The notes beneath the pieces are model-generated. The model did no database searches, had not been told where the DNA came from, and saw only the letters and a program-made list of their open reading frames with translations. Shown here one piece after another: positions 1 to 5,677 of a stretch of DNA of 8,759 bases. How positions within the stretch are numbered: the first letter of the stretch is position 1; each line of letters begins with the position of its first letter. Made by a program: the position numbers and the translations under genes. This DNA comes from a virus (taxonomy: Duplodnaviria > Heunggongvirae > Uroviricota > Caudoviricetes), in IMG/VR virus record IMGVR_UViG_2690316243_000011; one strand, written 5' to 3'.

Positions 1-31
1 TGGTAGTGTCCGCTATTGCCAGTACACCTCA
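1..31. repeat. Left arm of a perfect 31-bp terminal inverted repeat (partner 8729-8759)
   Basis: tggtagtgtccgctattgccagtacacctca at 1-31 is the exact reverse complement of 8729-8759; identity ends at base 32 (g versus t). Checked base by base. Confidence 0.95.
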
Positions 32-579
32 GTGCCCTGGGTGAATGCCGAACCACCACGACAGCATGGTACCAGCAGGATCCCCGCATTATTAGGGATA
101 TACGGAAGCAGTTTTTTGGCAATATGTAAGCCCTGTCCGACACAGCCGTACTGCCCTTTGCTCAGGTCAGCCCGGGGATGGTTAATCGTACTCATATCCT
201 GAACATCATGCAGACAATGGTCAGCAGGAATGATGTCGTTAAATACGCATACTTCACCACCGGGAGTCACTGTGTTACGACGGGCCAGTTGCTTAATGCG
301 CGGATGGGGCGCATCGTATGAATCCGGAAGCGGAAGACCTTCACCGTAAGCCATGGCATTGGATTGCCCGGCCAGTACGATGACGTAGTACCACTCCGGC
401 TCAGTTGCACCACTGACGACCACATCACCTTCTGCTGCAATCGCCTGCATCAGGGTATAAGGGGTTATGGCCACCGGACTACCAAACGGCTGCCAGCCCT
501 CCTTCAGTTTTTGTGTCAGTCGTTTCGCAAGGTCTGACGGCGATGCCGCCCTGACCACGTCATAGTGTTTAAATGCCAT
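13..579 (-). CDS. NanS-p-like sialate O-acetylesterase, N-terminal 188 aa only; apparently truncated by a TAG stop at 13-15
   Basis: ATG at 579-577 preceded by GGGAGGA. The translation contains the esterase block-I motif VLAGQSNAMAYGEG (GQSN with the serine nucleophile), but the later catalytic blocks are absent because the frame ends ...TEVYWQ-TAG inside the terminal inverted repeat. Prophage NanS-p proteins are several hundred aa (from memory). Confidence 0.65.
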   Translation of the reverse strand: MAFKHYDVVRAASPSDLAKRLTQKLKEGWQPFGSPVAITPYTLMQAIAAEGDVVVSGATEPEWYYVIVLAGQSNAMAYGEGLPLPDSYDAPHPRIKQLARRNTVTPGGEVCVFNDIIPADHCLHDVQDMSTINHPRADLSKGQYGCVGQGLHIAKKLLPYIPNNAGILLVPCCRGGSAFTQGTEVYWQ

Positions 580-772
580 GAATCCTCCCGGCCGGGATAA
601 TATTGTGAGTAAAATAAGGAGCGGGCTGAAGTCCGGAAGTTACAGGACAATGGCAGAAGAGAGACGACAGCCCGCAATTCGAAAAAGACCGCGCAGTTGC
701 GCAGAGTGATTACTATGGGGTATTATTCGCCAGCTGAAATATTACTTCACGTTTTATTGTTTATTCCTTGCC

Positions 773-801
773 GCCCGCGTCTCCCAGCGCGGGCTTTTTT
801 T
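773..801 (+). terminator. Intrinsic terminator-like hairpin plus T7 tract on the plus strand
   Basis: gcccgcg (773-779) pairs with cgcgggc (788-794) as a 7-bp GC stem with an 8-nt loop, followed by ttttttt (795-801). On the minus strand the same hairpin is followed by ggcaagg, so it is not a minus-strand terminator. Confidence 0.5.
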
Positions 802-804
802 GCC

Positions 805-1105
805 CACAAGAAAACCCCTCCGGAGAGGGGCTAAAGCCGCGTATCTGTATCATCATGCACATGGTGCCGGGTGCCTCCCGGTGAGTTCAGCCCGGTGCCA
901 CTAAACCCGCGTCATTCTCGTTTTGATAATCAGAGATTATACCGTCACCAGTCGCCCCTCCGCTCAGGGGGATTCACCATGCGAAATTTTTTTAACAAAT
1001 GCCCAGTCTGACAGGCAACTGTCAACTTACTGAATTGTGAGCAACATAGCATTTAACGGGGAACCTGTTTTCTGCAGTAAAAAGGCCCACCGGAGCGGAT
1101 GGGCC
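805..1105 (-). repeat. Copy L of a diverged structured non-coding module (hairpin-rich, bounded by terminator-like hairpins)
   Basis: Aligns with 1293-1540 at roughly 65-70 percent identity (by eye). Shared blocks include cccctccggagaggg, tgccgggtgcctcccggtga, gcccctccgc-N-cagggggattcaccatgc, ttttaacaaa, caactgtcaac, ctgaattgtgag and aaaaaggccc. No conserved ORF. Confidence 0.6.
808..830 (-). terminator. Terminator-like hairpin at the 3' end of module L (minus strand)
   Basis: Minus-strand RNA reads cccctc-tccg-gagggg (6-bp GC stem, 4-nt loop) followed by UUUUCUUG. Confidence 0.5.
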
Positions 1106-1292
1106 TGGAAGGATAGCGGTCATGTGATGCCGGTTTCCCGGTAACTCAGCACCGGTATCTGAGTCAACGTTTTCTCTACTGGGTCATTTCCGATACGCCC
1201 TGCCTGCTGACAGGCTTTCATCACATCTGAAAATATAGCACCCTGACTGATACTGTAGTACCTAAGGTTCCAGAAACTGTGATGTATCCGGC

Positions 1293-1540
1293 ACAGAAAA
1301 GCCCCTCCGGAGAGGGCTGGAGAGTGGCGCTATGTGCCATTGCATGATGCCGGGTGCCTCCCGGTGAATTCAGTACCAGCACCTGAATCCGCGATTATCC
1401 CATATACCTACTCGCTGATTGCCCCTCCGCACAGGGGGATTCACCATGCCAGTTTCTTTTAACAAACTCCCCGCAAAACAGACAACTGTCAACCGTCTGA
1501 ATTGTGAGACATTTAAAAAAAAGGCCCGCAAAAGCGAGCC
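1293..1540 (-). repeat. Copy U of the same structured non-coding module, directly downstream of tRNA-Arg(UCU)
   Basis: Same conserved blocks and hairpins as 805-1105. Its 3' end has a weaker terminator-like hairpin (ccctc-cgga-gaggg, 1303-1316) followed on the minus strand by GCUUUUCUG. Confidence 0.6.
1514..1540 (-). terminator. Intrinsic terminator immediately downstream of the tRNA cluster
   Basis: Minus-strand RNA: ggcucgc-uuuu-gcgggcc (7-bp stem with one G-U pair) followed by UUUUUUUUU (plus-strand A-run 1514-1522); lies 15-40 nt past the tRNA 3' end. Confidence 0.65.
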
Positions 1541-1554
1541 AGGGAAAATAAGTG

Positions 1555-1631
1555 TGGCGCGTTGTACTGGATTCGAACCAGTGACCGATTGCTTAGAAGG
1601 CAATTGCTCTGTCCGGCTGAGCTAACAACGC
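1555..1631 (-). tRNA. argO: tRNA-Arg (anticodon UCU), copy A, 77 nt, CCA encoded
   Basis: Reverse complement folds as a cloverleaf: acceptor GCGTTGT/ACAACGC, D-stem GCTC/GAGC, anticodon stem ATTGC/GCAAT with loop CTTCTAA, T-stem ACTGG/CCAGT with loop TTCGAAT, discriminator G, CCA. Symbol assigned only by analogy with the ileZ-argN-argO cluster of Stx phages (from memory). Confidence 0.85.
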
Positions 1632-1641
1632 TGAATACCGA

Positions 1642-1662
1642 NNNNNNNNNNNNNNNNNNNNN
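1642..1662. other. Assembly gap (21 N)
   Basis: Run of n at 1642-1662; the flanking sequences on the two sides differ, so the true distance and linkage are unknown. Confidence 0.95.
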
Positions 1663-1706
1663 TTTCAGTATAAGGCTCTGCCGGAAGGAATCTGGAAGAA
1701 TGAATA

Positions 1707-1783
1707 TGGCGCGCTGTACTGGATTCGAACCAGTGACCGATTGCTTAGAAGGCAATTGCTCTGTCCGGCTGAGCTAACAACGC
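1707..1783 (-). tRNA. argO: tRNA-Arg (anticodon UCU), copy B, 77 nt, CCA encoded
   Basis: Identical to copy A except one base in the 3' acceptor strand (ACAGCGC versus ACAACGC), which gives a G-U pair. Its upstream flank differs from that of copy A. Confidence 0.85.
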
Positions 1784-1796
1784 ATGATGCAGATAA

Positions 1797-1873
1797 TGGA
1801 CCGCCATCGGGGACTTGAACCCCGCGCAGCCAGCTTCGAAGGCTGGCGCTCTTTCCTGATGAGCTAATGGCGG
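1797..1873 (-). tRNA. argN: tRNA-Arg (anticodon UCG), 77 nt, CCA encoded
   Basis: Cloverleaf: acceptor CCGCCAT/ATGGCGG, D-stem GCTC/GAGC, anticodon stem CCAGC/GCTGG with loop CTTCGAA, T-stem CGGGG/CCCCG with loop TTCAAGT, discriminator T, CCA. The 5' base is C, which is unusual but paired. Confidence 0.8.
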
Positions 1874-1880
1874 TATGTGA

Positions 1881-1956
1881 TGGTGGCCCTTGCTGGATTT
1901 GAACCAGCGACCTGGCGATTATGAGTCGCTCGCTCTCACCACTGAGCTAAAGGGCC
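1881..1956 (-). tRNA. ileZ: tRNA with CAU anticodon, Ile2 (lysidine)-type by similarity to E. coli ileX; a tRNA scanner would probably call it Met
   Basis: GGCCCTTTAGCTCAGTGGTGAGAGCGAGCGACTCATAATCGCCAGGTCGCTGGTTCAAATCCAGCAAGGGCCACCA: anticodon loop CTCATAA, T-loop TTCAAAT, CCA encoded. It resembles the tRNA-Ile2 sequence as I remember it. Confidence 0.85.
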
Positions 1957-1965
1957 GGGAGCCGC

Positions 1966-1994
1966 ATAATAACGACGCGTAATTAATTCTTCAA
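1966..1994 (-). promoter_or_regulatory. Candidate sigma70 promoter for the tRNA cluster
   Basis: Minus strand: TTGAAG (1994-1989), 17-bp spacer, TATTAT (1971-1966); the predicted start falls 1-3 nt before the mature 5' end of the first tRNA. The -35 sits just past the methyltransferase stop codon. Pattern match only. Confidence 0.4.
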
Positions 1995-1996
1995 TA

Positions 1997-3055
1997 TCAT
2001 CCGTTCTGGCTGACTAAATCCTGTACTTCCCGAACCGTCTGCTCAAAACGTTCAGTCTCCAGCTCAACGCCAATTGCACGACGCCCGAGCGCCAGTGCCG
2101 CTTTCACTGTCGAACCCAACCCCATGAAAAAATCTGCAATCAGGTCACCCGGACGACTGCTAGCGCTGATTATCTGCTGCAGCATTTCTGCCGGTTTTTC
2201 GCACGGATGTTTCCCGGGATAGAACTGCACCGGTTTATGCGTCCACACATCGGTATACGGCACCTGCACCGTCACGCCAAAATACCGCCGCAGATGTTTA
2301 TATTCACTCAGCAGCTCCGCATACTGCCGGTTCAGTGAGGTATACGTATCCACCAGCTGGTGGTGGAGCTTTTCCAGTTCACCACGCCGATGCTTCTCTT
2401 CTGCCACCCGGGCAAACAGCGCCTGTAATTTCAGATAATCGCTTTCATTCGGCAACTGCCACTGACCGGCACTGAACCAGTGCGACACCATGTTTTTCTT
2501 TCCTGTGGCATCTGCAATCTGTTTTGCCGTTATCCCCAGGGCAGCTCGCGCATCACGAAAGTAAGAAATCAGCGGGGCCATCACATGCTGTTTCAGTGCA
2601 CTGCCCTTCGCCGCATACCCGGCATCTTTCGGACGATACGGCCCCTGATAATGTTCCGCGAACAGAATGCGCTCTGTGGCGGGGAAATACGCCCGCAGGC
2701 TTTCCTTGTTGCATCCGTTCCAGCGTCCGGACGGCTTCGCCCAGATAATATGGTTCAGCACACTGAAGCGTTCACGCATCATGATTTCGATATCAGATGC
2801 CAGGCGATGACCACAGAACAGGTAAAGACTTCCGGCAGGTTTCAGCACCCGCCAGAACTGCGCCAGACACTGGTCCAGCCACTTCAGGTAATCATCGTCG
2901 CCCTTCCACTGGTTATCCCAGCCCTCAGGCTTCACTTTAAAGTACGGCGGGGCCGTGACTATCAGGTCAACAGAATTTTCGGGTAACGACCGGATAAATT
3001 CCAGGCAGTCGGCGTTGATTAACTCACAACTGGATATTTTTACAGTATTAAGCAT
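1997..3055 (-). CDS. DNA methyltransferase, beta-class N6-adenine/N4-cytosine family; orphan, no restriction endonuclease partner
   Basis: 352 aa. Motif IV-like DLIVTAPPYF near the N-terminus and motif I-like DFFMGLGST near the C-terminus, in the beta-class order. Motif IV reads APPY rather than the canonical D/N/S-PPY (confirmed on the DNA: acg gcc ccg ccg tac). Confidence 0.85.
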   Translation of the reverse strand: MLNTVKISSCELINADCLEFIRSLPENSVDLIVTAPPYFKVKPEGWDNQWKGDDDYLKWLDQCLAQFWRVLKPAGSLYLFCGHRLASDIEIMMRERFSVLNHIIWAKPSGRWNGCNKESLRAYFPATERILFAEHYQGPYRPKDAGYAAKGSALKQHVMAPLISYFRDARAALGITAKQIADATGKKNMVSHWFSAGQWQLPNESDYLKLQALFARVAEEKHRRGELEKLHHQLVDTYTSLNRQYAELLSEYKHLRRYFGVTVQVPYTDVWTHKPVQFYPGKHPCEKPAEMLQQIISASSRPGDLIADFFMGLGSTVKAALALGRRAIGVELETERFEQTVREVQDLVSQNG

Positions 3056-3521: not shown

Positions 3522-3547
3522 ATAAAAAACCCGCTCGGCGGCGGGTT
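3522..3547 (-). terminator. Intrinsic terminator about 40-65 nt downstream of the Q stop codon
   Basis: Minus-strand RNA: aacccgc-cgccga-gcggguu followed by UUUUUUAUG. Confidence 0.6.
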
Positions 3548-3586
3548 GTAGAAACTCTTCTAACGTCAGGCATAAAACGCCCATCG

Positions 3587-4441
3587 TTATGACGAATTTA
3601 CCACAGATTCCGGAAAAATCAACCTAGTTACCTTTTTTAACTGCCGCTCAGCCCATGCTTCTTCAATATCAAACCGGGTCACCAGCGCATCATAAAATTT
3701 CTTAACTGTTTTTTCCCATGACGCGCGTGTTATCTGGTTTGTCACCTCGCATATAGCATTAAATGCCTCCGTTGATGGTAGTCTTTCATAGCCACGACCA
3801 CCACAACGCTGGCAGTCTCTGATAACAGGCATACCACGTTTTACCGACTCTTCACGATGAATGGCGACACCACGCCCACGGCAATCCTTACAGGCGGTGG
3901 AAACCTCACCCTTTCCGCCACACTCCGGACAGGCAACTTTTACCACCTCTCTGACTTTTTTCCATTCTTCCCAGTAAGACGGATACACACCTTTCGTACA
4001 CTTTGCCCATACCGGCGGCTTACCATCCGGATACTGGATCTTGTTTGTAAAAACCTCGCTTTCAATAAATTTTTTTCCGTGACAGCAGGGGCACTGTTTT
4101 TTGCTCGCCGCGCTACGGGCATAATCTTCAAACGCATACGAAGCCATAATACGCATCACTGCCGGTTTTATTTCTGCCGGGAGTTTTCTTAACGCCGCCA
4201 CGCGATCACACCGACTGAGTGCATATTCTGTCAGCAATTCTGTTGCCCGCTCTCTGTCATTCATACTAATGCCCATTTTCCCAAGGAACGCAGAAACCCC
4301 CATCTCAGCCCGATTCTGTGTCATGCCCTGCGCGGCCATCACATCAGTGATACTCAGCGCATCTTTCGACGTTGAGGCCGATGCATCAGTCAGGCCGGGG
4401 GATTTTGGGGAGTAGTATTTCGGTAAATCTTCCAGTTTCAT
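3587..4441 (-). CDS. Q: Late-gene antiterminator Q, Q82/QuuQ-type, with CxxCxGxG zinc-finger repeats; complete copy
   Basis: 284 aa. Motifs CPCC, CPECGGKG, CKDCRGRG and CQRCGGRGYERLPS, with a C-terminal segment WEKTVKKFYDAL resembling phage 82 Q / QuuQ as I recall them. Its ATG overlaps the stop of the upstream rusA fragment (ATGA). Position downstream of rusA is as expected for Q. Confidence 0.7.
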   Translation of the reverse strand: MKLEDLPKYYSPKSPGLTDASASTSKDALSITDVMAAQGMTQNRAEMGVSAFLGKMGISMNDRERATELLTEYALSRCDRVAALRKLPAEIKPAVMRIMASYAFEDYARSAASKKQCPCCHGKKFIESEVFTNKIQYPDGKPPVWAKCTKGVYPSYWEEWKKVREVVKVACPECGGKGEVSTACKDCRGRGVAIHREESVKRGMPVIRDCQRCGGRGYERLPSTEAFNAICEVTNQITRASWEKTVKKFYDALVTRFDIEEAWAERQLKKVTRLIFPESVVNSS

Positions 4442-4551
4442 TTTTTGACCTGCCCTTCAAGCATTATGGGATAAATCTTCACCCCCAGACGTCCACCAGA
4501 TACTGGCTGAGCACGAACGATATTGATTTCATCAAACTGCTCATCGTCCAT
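4438..4551 (-). pseudogene. Duplicated 3' fragment of rusA (37 codons)
   Basis: Translates MDDEQFDEINIVRAQPVSGGRLGVKIYPIMLEGQVKK, matching the C-terminus of the full RusA ORF with a few substitutions. It begins at the duplication junction and ends in an ATGA overlap with Q copy 1. Confidence 0.6.
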
Positions 4552-5300
4552 TANAATTTCTTAACTGTTTTTTCCCATGACGCGCGTGTTATCTGGTTTG
4601 TCACCTCGCATATAGCATTAAATGCCTCCGTTGATGGTAGTCTTTCATAGCCACGACCACCACAACGCTGGCAGTCTCTGATAACAGGCATACCACGTTT
4701 TACCGACTCTTCACGATGAATGGCGACACCACGCCCACGGCAATCCTTACAGGCGGTGGAAACCTCACCCTTTCCGCCACACTCCGGACAGGCAACTTTT
4801 ACCACCTCTCTGACTTTTTTCCATTCTTCCCAGTAAGACGGATACACACCTTTCGTACACTTTGCCCATACCGGCGGCTTACCATCCGGATACTGGACCT
4901 TGTTTGTAAAAACTACGCTTTCAATAAATTTTTCCCCATAGCAACAAGGGCACTGCTTTTTACTCGCTGCGCTGCGGGCATAATCCTCAAAAGCGTACGA
5001 AGCCATAATGCGCATCACTACCGGTTTTATTTCTGCCGGAAGTTTTCTCAACGCCGCCACACGATCGCACCGACTGAGTGCATAATCTGCCAGTAATTCT
5101 GTTGCCCGCGCCCTGTCATTCATACTGATGCCCATTTTCCCCAGGAACGCAGAAAACCCCATCTCAGCCCGATTCTGTGTCATGCCCTGCGCGGCCATCA
5201 CATCAGTGATACTCAGCGCATCTTTCGACGTTGAGGCCGATGCATCAGTCAGGCCGGGGGATTTTGGGGAGTAGTATTTCGGTAAATCTTCCAGTTTCAT
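4551..5300 (-). CDS. Q: Second copy of antiterminator Q, C-terminally truncated at the duplication junction (249 aa, last codon contains the N)
   Basis: ATG at 5300 overlaps the RusA stop (ATGA). The protein is co-linear with Q copy 1 up to ...WEKTVKK, then a TTN codon and TAA. It lacks the last ~35 residues of copy 1. Confidence 0.5.
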   Translation of the reverse strand: MKLEDLPKYYSPKSPGLTDASASTSKDALSITDVMAAQGMTQNRAEMGFSAFLGKMGISMNDRARATELLADYALSRCDRVAALRKLPAEIKPVVMRIMASYAFEDYARSAASKKQCPCCYGEKFIESVVFTNKVQYPDGKPPVWAKCTKGVYPSYWEEWKKVREVVKVACPECGGKGEVSTACKDCRGRGVAIHREESVKRGMPVIRDCQRCGGRGYERLPSTEAFNAICEVTNQITRASWEKTVKKX

Positions 5301-5677
5301 TTTTTGACCTGCTCTTCATGCATTATGGGGTAAATCTTCACCCCCAGACGTCCACCAGATACTGGCTGACCACGAACGATATTGATTTCATCAAACTGCT
5401 CATCGTCCATTAGCAACCCCGCATGCGTCAGCGCATCCAGCGGCGCTTTCAGAATATTGTCCAGGTCACGACGGCGCTTATCCGGTGGCTCTGCAATAAT
5501 CTTTATCGCCAGTCTTCCGGACAGGCTTAATTTCAGCCGCTGCTGGCGAACAATAAGCGCCACTGCCCGGCGATAACGCTCCCCGGCTTTTGATACAAAA
5601 TATGTGCTGCCACGACGACGCCAGTAAGTGTTCACCGTCGGCGGGTAAGGTAAAACAAATTCTATGCGCTCGGTCAT
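5297..5677 (-). CDS. rusA: RusA-family Holliday-junction resolvase (endodeoxyribonuclease RusA)
   Basis: 126 aa with PDKRRRDLDNILKAPLDALTHAGLLMDDEQ, matching the conserved DRRRRDLDN acidic motif region of RusA. Its start follows the upstream stop directly (TAAATG) and its stop overlaps the Q start. Confidence 0.8.
   Translation of the reverse strand: MTERIEFVLPYPPTVNTYWRRRGSTYFVSKAGERYRRAVALIVRQQRLKLSLSGRLAIKIIAEPPDKRRRDLDNILKAPLDALTHAGLLMDDEQFDEINIVRGQPVSGGRLGVKIYPIMHEEQVKK

Follow-up and report, generated by a model that had tools for sequence, protein, structure and literature searches.

Small-RNA genes in the stx slot of a lambdoid prophage late region from Escherichia coli

What lies at the place where Shiga toxin (Stx) phages carry stx, in a related prophage that has no toxin gene there? 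We examined this question for the interval at positions 580-1553 of an 8,759-nucleotide stretch of viral DNA (Caudoviricetes; IMG/VR record IMGVR_UViG_2690316243_000011), the whole of which we call the window. A preliminary description had placed in this interval two diverged copies of a hairpin-rich module and no credible open reading frame (ORF), had offered as readings a prophage small RNA (sRNA), an anti-sRNA, a late-promoter/qut/6S-like leader or a cargo-insertion site, and had proposed an Rfam search, a covariation analysis and a comparison with the Q-stx intervals of Stx phages. We consider it highly probable that the interval holds four small-RNA genes, three on the minus strand (copies B, C and A) and one on the plus strand. 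The small-RNA families concerned have already been described in pathogenic E. coli and their arrangement is known, so that the tandem A-C-B array and a candidate unnamed subfamily represented by copy C are the only, mildly, new points.

The longest ORFs of the interval that lie clear of the tRNA genes have at most 53 amino acids, and a Pfam search of seven small ORFs from it gave nothing above threshold, in keeping with the earlier view of its coding content. The repeated module is equally evident: direct repeats link 954-1041 with 1421-1508 (82%) and 860-890 with 1343-1373 (94%), and self-BLAST aligns 809-1041 with 1295-1508 at 70.6% identity over 238 nt (E = 2e-20). The module carries the GC hairpins CCCCCUGNGCGGAGGGG and CCGGGAGGCACCCGG and the terminator CCCCUCUCCGGAGGGG. 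A terminator scan of positions 500-2100 found 12 terminator-like sites against 2.0 expected, those on the minus strand including 832-813, 1106-1083, 1318-1300 and 1540-1523.

Rfam identifies both copies as STnc100 (RF02076, gathering threshold 47 bits). Copy A (802-1041, minus strand) matches at 1011-802 with 161 bits (E = 4.5e-37) and copy B (1289-1508, minus strand) at 1478-1289 with 123.6 bits (E = 1.7e-27), each spanning model positions 1-206. Because the similarity between A and B extends about 30 nt past the 5' end of the Rfam model (CTCACAATTCAG...GTTGACAG), we set the units at ~802-1041 and ~1289-1508, the 5' box reaching 1041 in copy A and 1508 in copy B (there CTCACAATTC...GTTGACAG), with terminators at 832-813 and 1318-1300 respectively. 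The ranges first proposed for the module, 805-1105 and 1293-1540, located the copies correctly and overshot at their upstream limits, since they took in the terminators at 1083-1106 and 1523-1540; likewise the three GC hairpins and the terminators stand, except that the supposed 5' terminator of each copy belongs to the unit upstream (copy C) or to the tRNA cluster. The latter terminator (GGCTCGCTTTTGCGGGCC followed by T8; 1515-1540, minus strand) also precedes the STnc100 unit of prophage Sp4 in E. coli Sakai.

The closest described relatives of the two copies are RNAs of enterohaemorrhagic E. coli (EHEC): copy B shares 97.6-97.8% identity with the unit of Sakai Sp4 that we assign to EcOnc05, and copy A is 84.5% identical to Sakai EcOnc27. 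EcOnc27, downstream of stx2B, has a peak in Hfq cross-linking and analysis of cDNA (CRAC) and gives Northern bands of ~235 and 247 nt, the 247-nt band being destabilized without hfq; EcOnc05 in Sp4 is ~222 nt long. Eleven STnc100 loci of strain EDL933 are transcribed, STnc100_4 having been confirmed by Northern blot. STnc100 RNA has further been detected in outer membrane vesicles, and single-nucleotide polymorphisms in the unit downstream of stx2 are among the features that predict haemolytic uraemic syndrome. The identification of both copies by Rfam, with homologues that are transcribed, bound by Hfq and detected on Northern blots in EHEC, bears out the suggestion of a prophage sRNA. The coordinates in Table S2 of Tree et al. 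refer to an older Sakai record, shifted by about +137 to +140 at Sp5 as judged from AsxR; we took the shift at Sp4 to be zero, since this places the EcOnc05 peak within the 3' portion of the STnc100 unit, where the EcOnc27 peak also lies.

To describe the fold we used a covariance model, R1, made of the robust helices of six E. coli sequences (34 pairs in the long-range stem P1, hairpin H1, composite hairpin H3/H4, hairpin H5 and the terminator). It was run on 96 sources, mostly loci from one genome per species gathered by an H1 pattern, and gave 133 matches in Kosakonia, Enterobacter, Klebsiella, Raoultella, Citrobacter, Leclercia, Superficieibacter, Escherichia and others. Over 129 distinct Enterobacteriaceae rows, standard pairs fill 92.9% of the pair cells, as against 77.8% in shuffles (0 of 500 of which reach the observed pairing), and sliding the 3' partners by 1-3 columns brings the pairing down to 43-49%. 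The covariation analysis that had been proposed finds compensatory change, with both sides altered, at 31 of the 34 pairs in these rows. The STnc100 consensus fold, in which three hairpins are enclosed by a long-range stem and accompanied by a terminator hairpin, is present in A, B and C, which form 32, 31 and 32 of the model pairs respectively. Scaffold columns are at least 90% conserved, including UCACCGGGAGGCACCCGGCACCA, which is absent from the collection pattern; column conservation is only 30-50% in the internal region and in the 3' linker that joins P1 to the terminator. The linkers of the three units differ (UGCAUGAUGAUACAGAUACGCGGCUUUA in A, CAAUGGCACAUAGCGCCACUCUCC in B and ACCGCUAUCCUUCC in C), and the units would therefore have different targets.

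Like copy C, the fourth gene had escaped the preliminary description. It lies on the plus strand at about 620-801, the 5' end being estimated by alignment to coordinates 1444797-1444978 of enteropathogenic E. coli (EPEC), and is of the EcOnc08/21/42 type. Its terminator (773-794, followed by U7) faces that of copy A at 832-813. Mean column identity is 96% across four aligned loci (the window, E2348/69 PP6, Sakai Sp4 and Sakai Sp15), and window positions 690-805 are 93% identical to Sp4 and 92% to the Stx1 prophage Sp15; the cassette was not found in Sakai Sp10 and Sp17. Just 5' of the terminator stands a predicted seed, CCUUGCC (766-772, plus strand), which is invariant in the four loci and complementary to the GGCAAGG/GGCAGGG motif among the targets of the EPEC homologue in RNA interaction by ligation and sequencing (RIL-seq). 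That homologue, E2348C_1409.E2348C_1408.IGR, is a 182-nt RNA listed as homologous to EcOnc08/21/42 in Table S6 of the EPEC RIL-seq study, with cfa, dppA and tir among its targets and GGCAAGG as its motif. Tree et al. placed the Hfq-CRAC peaks EcOnc08/EcOnc21 and EcOnc42 in Sp4 and Sp15, with a Northern band of ~271 nt, so the reported sizes of this RNA disagree (~271 nt by Northern blot in EHEC vs 182 nt by RNA-seq in EPEC). The homology itself stands apart from our assumption of zero shift at Sp4, because the EPEC study states it independently.

A promoter-like site, ATGCCA-17-GATAAT (573-601, plus strand; 9 of 12 matches in a promoter scan and invariant in the four loci), would by its sequence start the plus-strand sRNA near 608; it overlaps the start codon of the esterase gene on the opposite strand. 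We had also considered an RNA of ~68 nt from a start near 733 (AsxR-like -35 TTGCGC, -10 TATTAT), and abandoned it in favour of a start near 608-620 because the Hfq peaks and the EPEC coordinates show a longer RNA. Weak Rfam matches on the element, such as OmrA-B (25.2 bits vs a cut-off of 40), suhB and anti-hemB, fall below threshold and are driven by the terminator. Of 5426 E. coli genomes, 987 carry the cassette, which has no annotation in the E. coli genome records among the matches listed. Within it lies a conserved hairpin, CTGCGCAACTGCGCGG followed by TCTTTTTCGA (689-704, minus strand), which is terminator-like on the late strand, is shared by the window, the Stx2a phage Stx2_95 and Sakai Sp5, and on the plus strand falls inside the convergent sRNA. 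The same hairpin (CCGCGCAGTTGCGCAG; about 4683-4720 in locus L003) contains the hexamer TTGCGC, which in Sp5 lies 18 nt upstream of TAAAAT and of the mapped AsxR 5' end and is thus probably the -35 element of AsxR there.

The explanation that we judge best by a good measure is a moron-site cluster of Hfq-dependent sRNA genes, acting in trans, within the late operon of a lambdoid prophage. It builds on what is observed directly in the window: A and B belong to the STnc100 family, all three units conserve the fold, the terminators are present and the region is syntenic with related prophages. On the late strand, three STnc100/PasD-family genes would stand head to tail in the order B, C, A, each with stem P1 closing a three-way hairpin junction, a variable internal region, a variable single-stranded linker and its own Rho-independent terminator, and the plus-strand EcOnc08/21/42-type gene would converge on copy A. 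Each unit, from a promoter of its own, would yield a separate RNA of ~170-250 nt that binds Hfq through its linker, terminator hairpin and U-tail and pairs in trans, through its variable region, with a distinct set of host or prophage mRNAs. Upon induction, none of the terminators would stop Q-modified RNA polymerase, which would go on to transcribe the esterase and lysis genes.

Several points weigh against this explanation. The promoter scan found no consensus sigma-70 promoter for any unit. Homologue sizes of 222-247 nt put the 5' ends near the conserved TCACAATTC box, whereas PasD (172 nt) begins at P1. Folded as single sequences, the three units have unremarkable energies (z = -1.15, -0.54 and -1.93), and for that reason we did not use folding energy as evidence. 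The alignment behind the covariation was fitted to the model and the locus pattern fixes H1, so that H1 and part of P1 are biased and the informative helices are H3/H4, H5, outer P1 and the terminator. Copy C scores only 30.1 bits (E = 1.7e-4, at a permissive threshold) on RF02076, below the cut-off of 47. For STnc100 proper the literature has no validated direct target and reports only that overexpressed sRNA103 affects fimZ and espA; transcription, Hfq binding and target pairing, which would hold here by analogy, come only from homologues elsewhere. As to possible promoter elements, a sigma-70 promoter that uses the conserved TTGACA box would lack an acceptable -10 at 16-18 nt; the TCACAA box is preceded, at a distance of 2-3 nt, by AT-rich hexamers (TATGTT after TGC in A; TAAATG, or TTAAAT one base upstream, in B).

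The most durable rival, which we find doubtful as the principal role though by no means negligible, assigns the region a function in cis: the late-strand terminators would silence the esterase and lysis genes in the lysogen and be crossed by Q-modified polymerase only, the sRNAs being by-products. Lambda Q antitermination is established biology, and the window fits it in having seven late-strand terminator-like hairpins between Q and the lysis side (3547-3528, 3219-3202, 1540-1523, 1318-1300, 1106-1083, 832-813 and 704-689). A published review moreover calls the reason for the dyad arrangement of such sRNAs unclear. Yet a barrier needs terminators only, and so leaves unexplained a three-way junction with compensatory changes across genera, the strong Hfq binding of homologues, and the RIL-seq target sets of PasD and of the plus-strand homologue. 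Given these seven terminators between Q and esterase, a Q-dependent barrier is compatible with the trans-acting sRNA cluster as a secondary role.

Less probable still is a reading in which recombination among prophages left duplicates that have decayed and lost their function, copy C being foremost among the units concerned. Copy C (1077-1284, minus strand; RF02076 model match 1250-1077, terminator 1106-1083) has its 5' box, ATCACAGTTTC, at about 1284 and the linker CUAUCCUUCC upstream of the terminator. Its low Rfam score would suit decay, as would the lack of BLAST similarity to A and B (and E = 4.3 against PasD2), the lack of a good promoter in the scan and the mosaic nature of prophage late regions; with a score under the Rfam threshold, we file it as a diverged relative and not as a member of STnc100. 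Against decay, the unit not only forms nearly all of the model pairs but has changed on both sides at four P1 positions and three H1 positions relative to A and B, and reaches 37.6 bits (E = 1.9e-7) on our own model R1. A variant of 85% identity, found in E. albertii, E. coli ECONIH6 and phage vB_EcoS-640R1, differs in sequence at H1 and at the terminator yet preserves a hairpin and a terminator there, and it too is the middle one of three units. Copy C is present in 673 of 5426 complete E. coli genomes (~12%) as well as in E. albertii and a sequenced phage, and it stands in the middle of an array of three units in all six loci examined. We treat copy C as probably functional. Its identification as PasD was ruled out by BLAST against PasD2 and by the differing linkers. 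We would give about even odds to a more specific proposal, in which copy C represents an unnamed third subfamily of the STnc100/PasD scaffold, lambdoid prophages have at the moron site a diversification cassette, built by recombination, of two to five sRNAs that share the scaffold and differ in their seeds, and the CU-rich linker CUAUCCUUCC of copy C serves as an anti-Shine-Dalgarno seed.

That the units encode short peptides from the conserved AUGGUGAAUCCCCC seems very improbable. Several EDL933 STnc100 loci do have appreciable ribosome footprints (the ribosome coverage value of STnc100_10 is 3.21), and the AUG is conserved in A and B; however, the frames run to 11, 25 and 1 codons in A, B and C and to 8 codons in PasD2, no Shine-Dalgarno sequence precedes the AUG, Pfam gives no matches, and the AUG lies within P1, where changes are compensated on the pairing strand. 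The late-promoter/qut/6S-like leader of the preliminary description is all but excluded. In its favour is only the presence of terminators; against it, Q ends at 3587 and is followed by a terminator at 3547-3528, the methylase gene and four tRNA genes before the interval begins, and the equivalent units of Stx phages lie downstream of stx.

A candidate for such a leader does exist near 3528-3600, about 2 kb upstream of the interval. There a strong intrinsic terminator (AACCCGCCGCCGAGCGGGTT followed by T6; 3547-3528, minus strand) lies ~40 nt past the Q stop codon and is likely to be tR', at which a short leader transcript from PR', similar to lambda 6S or StxS, would end; the candidate at 3528-3600 has no Rfam match at gathering score.

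The setting of the interval matches that of stx. In phage Stx2_95 and Sakai Sp5 the order is methylase or Q, tRNAs, stx2AB, STnc100 module and esterase, as the preliminary description had supposed in placing the interval in the stx slot, and the proposed comparison with Stx phages aligns window positions 560-1046 to the sequence downstream of stx2B with 91% mean column identity (91% likewise for 560-1060 in Stx2_95). For Sp3, Sp4, Sp5, Sp9, Sp10, Sp11, Sp15 and Sp17, Tree et al. (2014) reported that the moron site downstream of PR' carries Hfq-binding sRNAs in convergent pairs, and at least eight Sakai prophages have such sRNA dyads in the stretch that separates the late promoter from the lysis genes. 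The idea of a cargo-insertion site was well founded, this moron site holding stx2AB in Stx2 phages. Another case of cargo at the moron site is the anti-adaptor gene iraM, which in ECONIH6 and phage vB_EcoS-640R1 stands on the opposite strand between a three-unit STnc100 array and the DUF1737 gene (loci L102 and L103, 914-1249). Sakai Sp10 and Sp17, the carriers of AgvB1 and AgvB2, have strong STnc100-family units (141 and 138 bits on R1; L096 16754-16916 and L097 16454-16616), and, as the review has AgvB antisense to EcOnc06, they carry the dyad too.

The A-C-B arrangement is also found in E. coli 55989 and ATCC 11775, and window positions 1-2000 are covered to 80% or more by 120 genomes. Among the 92 loci from other species, at least 13 hold arrays, with two to five units each, as in Superficieibacter (L024, L040) and Leclercia (L081). 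Three to five STnc100-family units stand in a row in Superficieibacter and Leclercia at L024 6327-7004, L040 135-1617, L081 5410-6549 and L022 6388-7919, and the H1-pattern matches of Superficieibacter electus L024 are 257 nt apart. The segment made up of copy B and the tRNA terminator before it has a 97.8% match in Sp4, and the segment made up of copy A and the plus-strand cassette has its counterpart downstream of stx in Stx phages. The array therefore looks like a recombinant of different prophage late regions; an identity of only 70.6% between A and B speaks against a recent duplication.

The window as a whole is the late region of a lambdoid prophage of E. coli, and its DNA has 98-99% identity to prophages in many strains, among them E. 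coli 55989 and ATCC 11775. All its genes are on the minus strand. From high to low coordinates, there is a hok/sok type I toxin-antitoxin module (sok at 7889-7714, RF01794, 112.4 bits; a 70-amino-acid Hok ORF at 7776-7564, Pfam HOK_GEF); DUF968 and RusA genes, found as ORFs with Pfam matches between hok/sok and Q; two Q antiterminator ORFs (5300-4551 and 4441-3587; Pfam Antiterm); an N6/N4 DNA methylase gene (3055-1997; Pfam); and four tRNA genes (1956-1555; ARAGORN and Rfam). The last of the tRNA cluster, tRNA-Arg(tct) at 1555-1631 (ARAGORN; Rfam tRNA, 70.1 bits), marks the upstream edge of the sRNA region. The downstream edge is a 188-amino-acid ORF (13-579) with DUF1737 and the start of a SASA esterase of NanS-p type (DUF1737 59.5 bits; SASA 19.8 bits, under the cut-off).

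Parts of this stretch are irregular. The esterase ORF ends at 188 amino acids, compared with a 618-amino-acid gene in E. coli 55989, and window bases 1-26 do not align to the 55989 prophage, which suggests that the nanS-p-type gene is truncated or rearranged here; ATCC 11775 likewise has only a DUF1737 fragment at the esterase position. The two Q ORFs (284 and 249 amino acids) result from an 861-bp tandem duplication (3693-4553 and 4552-5412, 95.8% identity), which may be real or an assembly artefact, ATCC 11775 and 55989 having a single Q at the equivalent place. A run of 20 N (1643-1662) lies between 90-nt duplicates with tRNA-Arg(tct) (1543-1631 and 1694-1783, 94%), a segment of which the reference prophages have one copy. 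The run and the duplication probably reflect an assembly gap or masking, and the fourth tRNA gene may consequently not exist.

At a methodological level, the locus illustrates that structured sRNA genes can be detected by a reader of sequence only, and that one Rfam scan then settles their identity. Biologically, an stx-negative E. coli prophage keeps, and even multiplies, the set of Hfq-binding sRNAs that flanks stx in Shiga-toxin phages. The A-C-B tandem array recurs in E. coli, E. albertii and a sequenced phage, with shorter or longer arrays in other Enterobacteriaceae, and two widespread elements, copy C (673 genomes) and the EcOnc08-type sRNA (987 genomes), have been missed by routine annotation. 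The purpose of sRNA dyads and arrays between late promoter and lysis genes is still called unclear in the literature.

How do these elements compare with systems already known? Lambda 6S RNA and StxS, short PR' transcripts that end at tR', resemble the units here as prophage late-region RNAs ending at an intrinsic terminator, but that element lies directly downstream of Q, and its candidate in the window, near 3528-3600, is outside 580-1553. AsxR and AgvB offer a closer parallel in position: in Sp5 the 53-nt AsxR converges on the STnc100 unit in the slot of our plus-strand sRNA, with flanks on both sides conserved between Sp5 and the window and a cassette of different sequence. The plus-strand RNA is about three times longer than AsxR, and anti-sRNA sponging is not part of its known features. 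Neither AsxR (RF02703) nor AgvB (RF02702), families with a conserved 3' region of ~42 nt, gives a match at E up to 10 in 560-1560, although the AsxR locus of Sakai Sp5, our positive control, scores 88.1 bits; we therefore rejected AsxR/AgvB as the identity of the plus-strand element. The earlier suggestion that the two copies are themselves anti-sRNAs fails on the same searches, the position of AsxR being taken by the plus-strand sRNA.

PasD1 and PasD2 of EPEC E2348/69, homologues of EcOnc13, depend on Hfq, and targets of both are known from RIL-seq. A structural relation between PasD and STnc100 has been described in a 2026 preprint, and we confirm it (PasD2 scores 41.4 bits on RF02076). The units here thus share a structural superfamily with PasD, and PasD2 and copy C both lie upstream of an esterase gene. 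The PasD seed is in the linker before the terminator, the position at which the Hfq peaks of EcOnc27 and EcOnc05 are also found. By contrast, the PasD copies are reported to be distal and not tandem, and A, B and C share with PasD2 by BLAST only 29-42 nt of scaffold or nothing, and their linkers differ from that of PasD, whose seed is UGUGAG; by sequence, all three fall outside PasD.

The two nearest systems are those to which we assign the genes. The plus-strand gene agrees with EcOnc08/21/42, an unnamed RNA that is not in Rfam, in its sequence (92-96% identity), terminator, CCUUGCC seed and convergent position upstream of the esterase. Copies A and B share their fold and terminator with EcOnc27/sRNA103 of the Stx2 phage Sp5 and with EcOnc05 of Sp4, and, like the EHEC units, lie between the tRNA/moron site and a NanS-p-type esterase; the prophage late-region location typical of STnc100 is equally found here (Q, RusA, DUF968, methylase, tRNAs and DUF1737/SASA, in synteny with 55989, Stx2_95 and Sakai). 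The window differs from these STnc100 loci in being without stx or another moron gene, and in having three units head to tail where EDL933 has eleven loci far apart.

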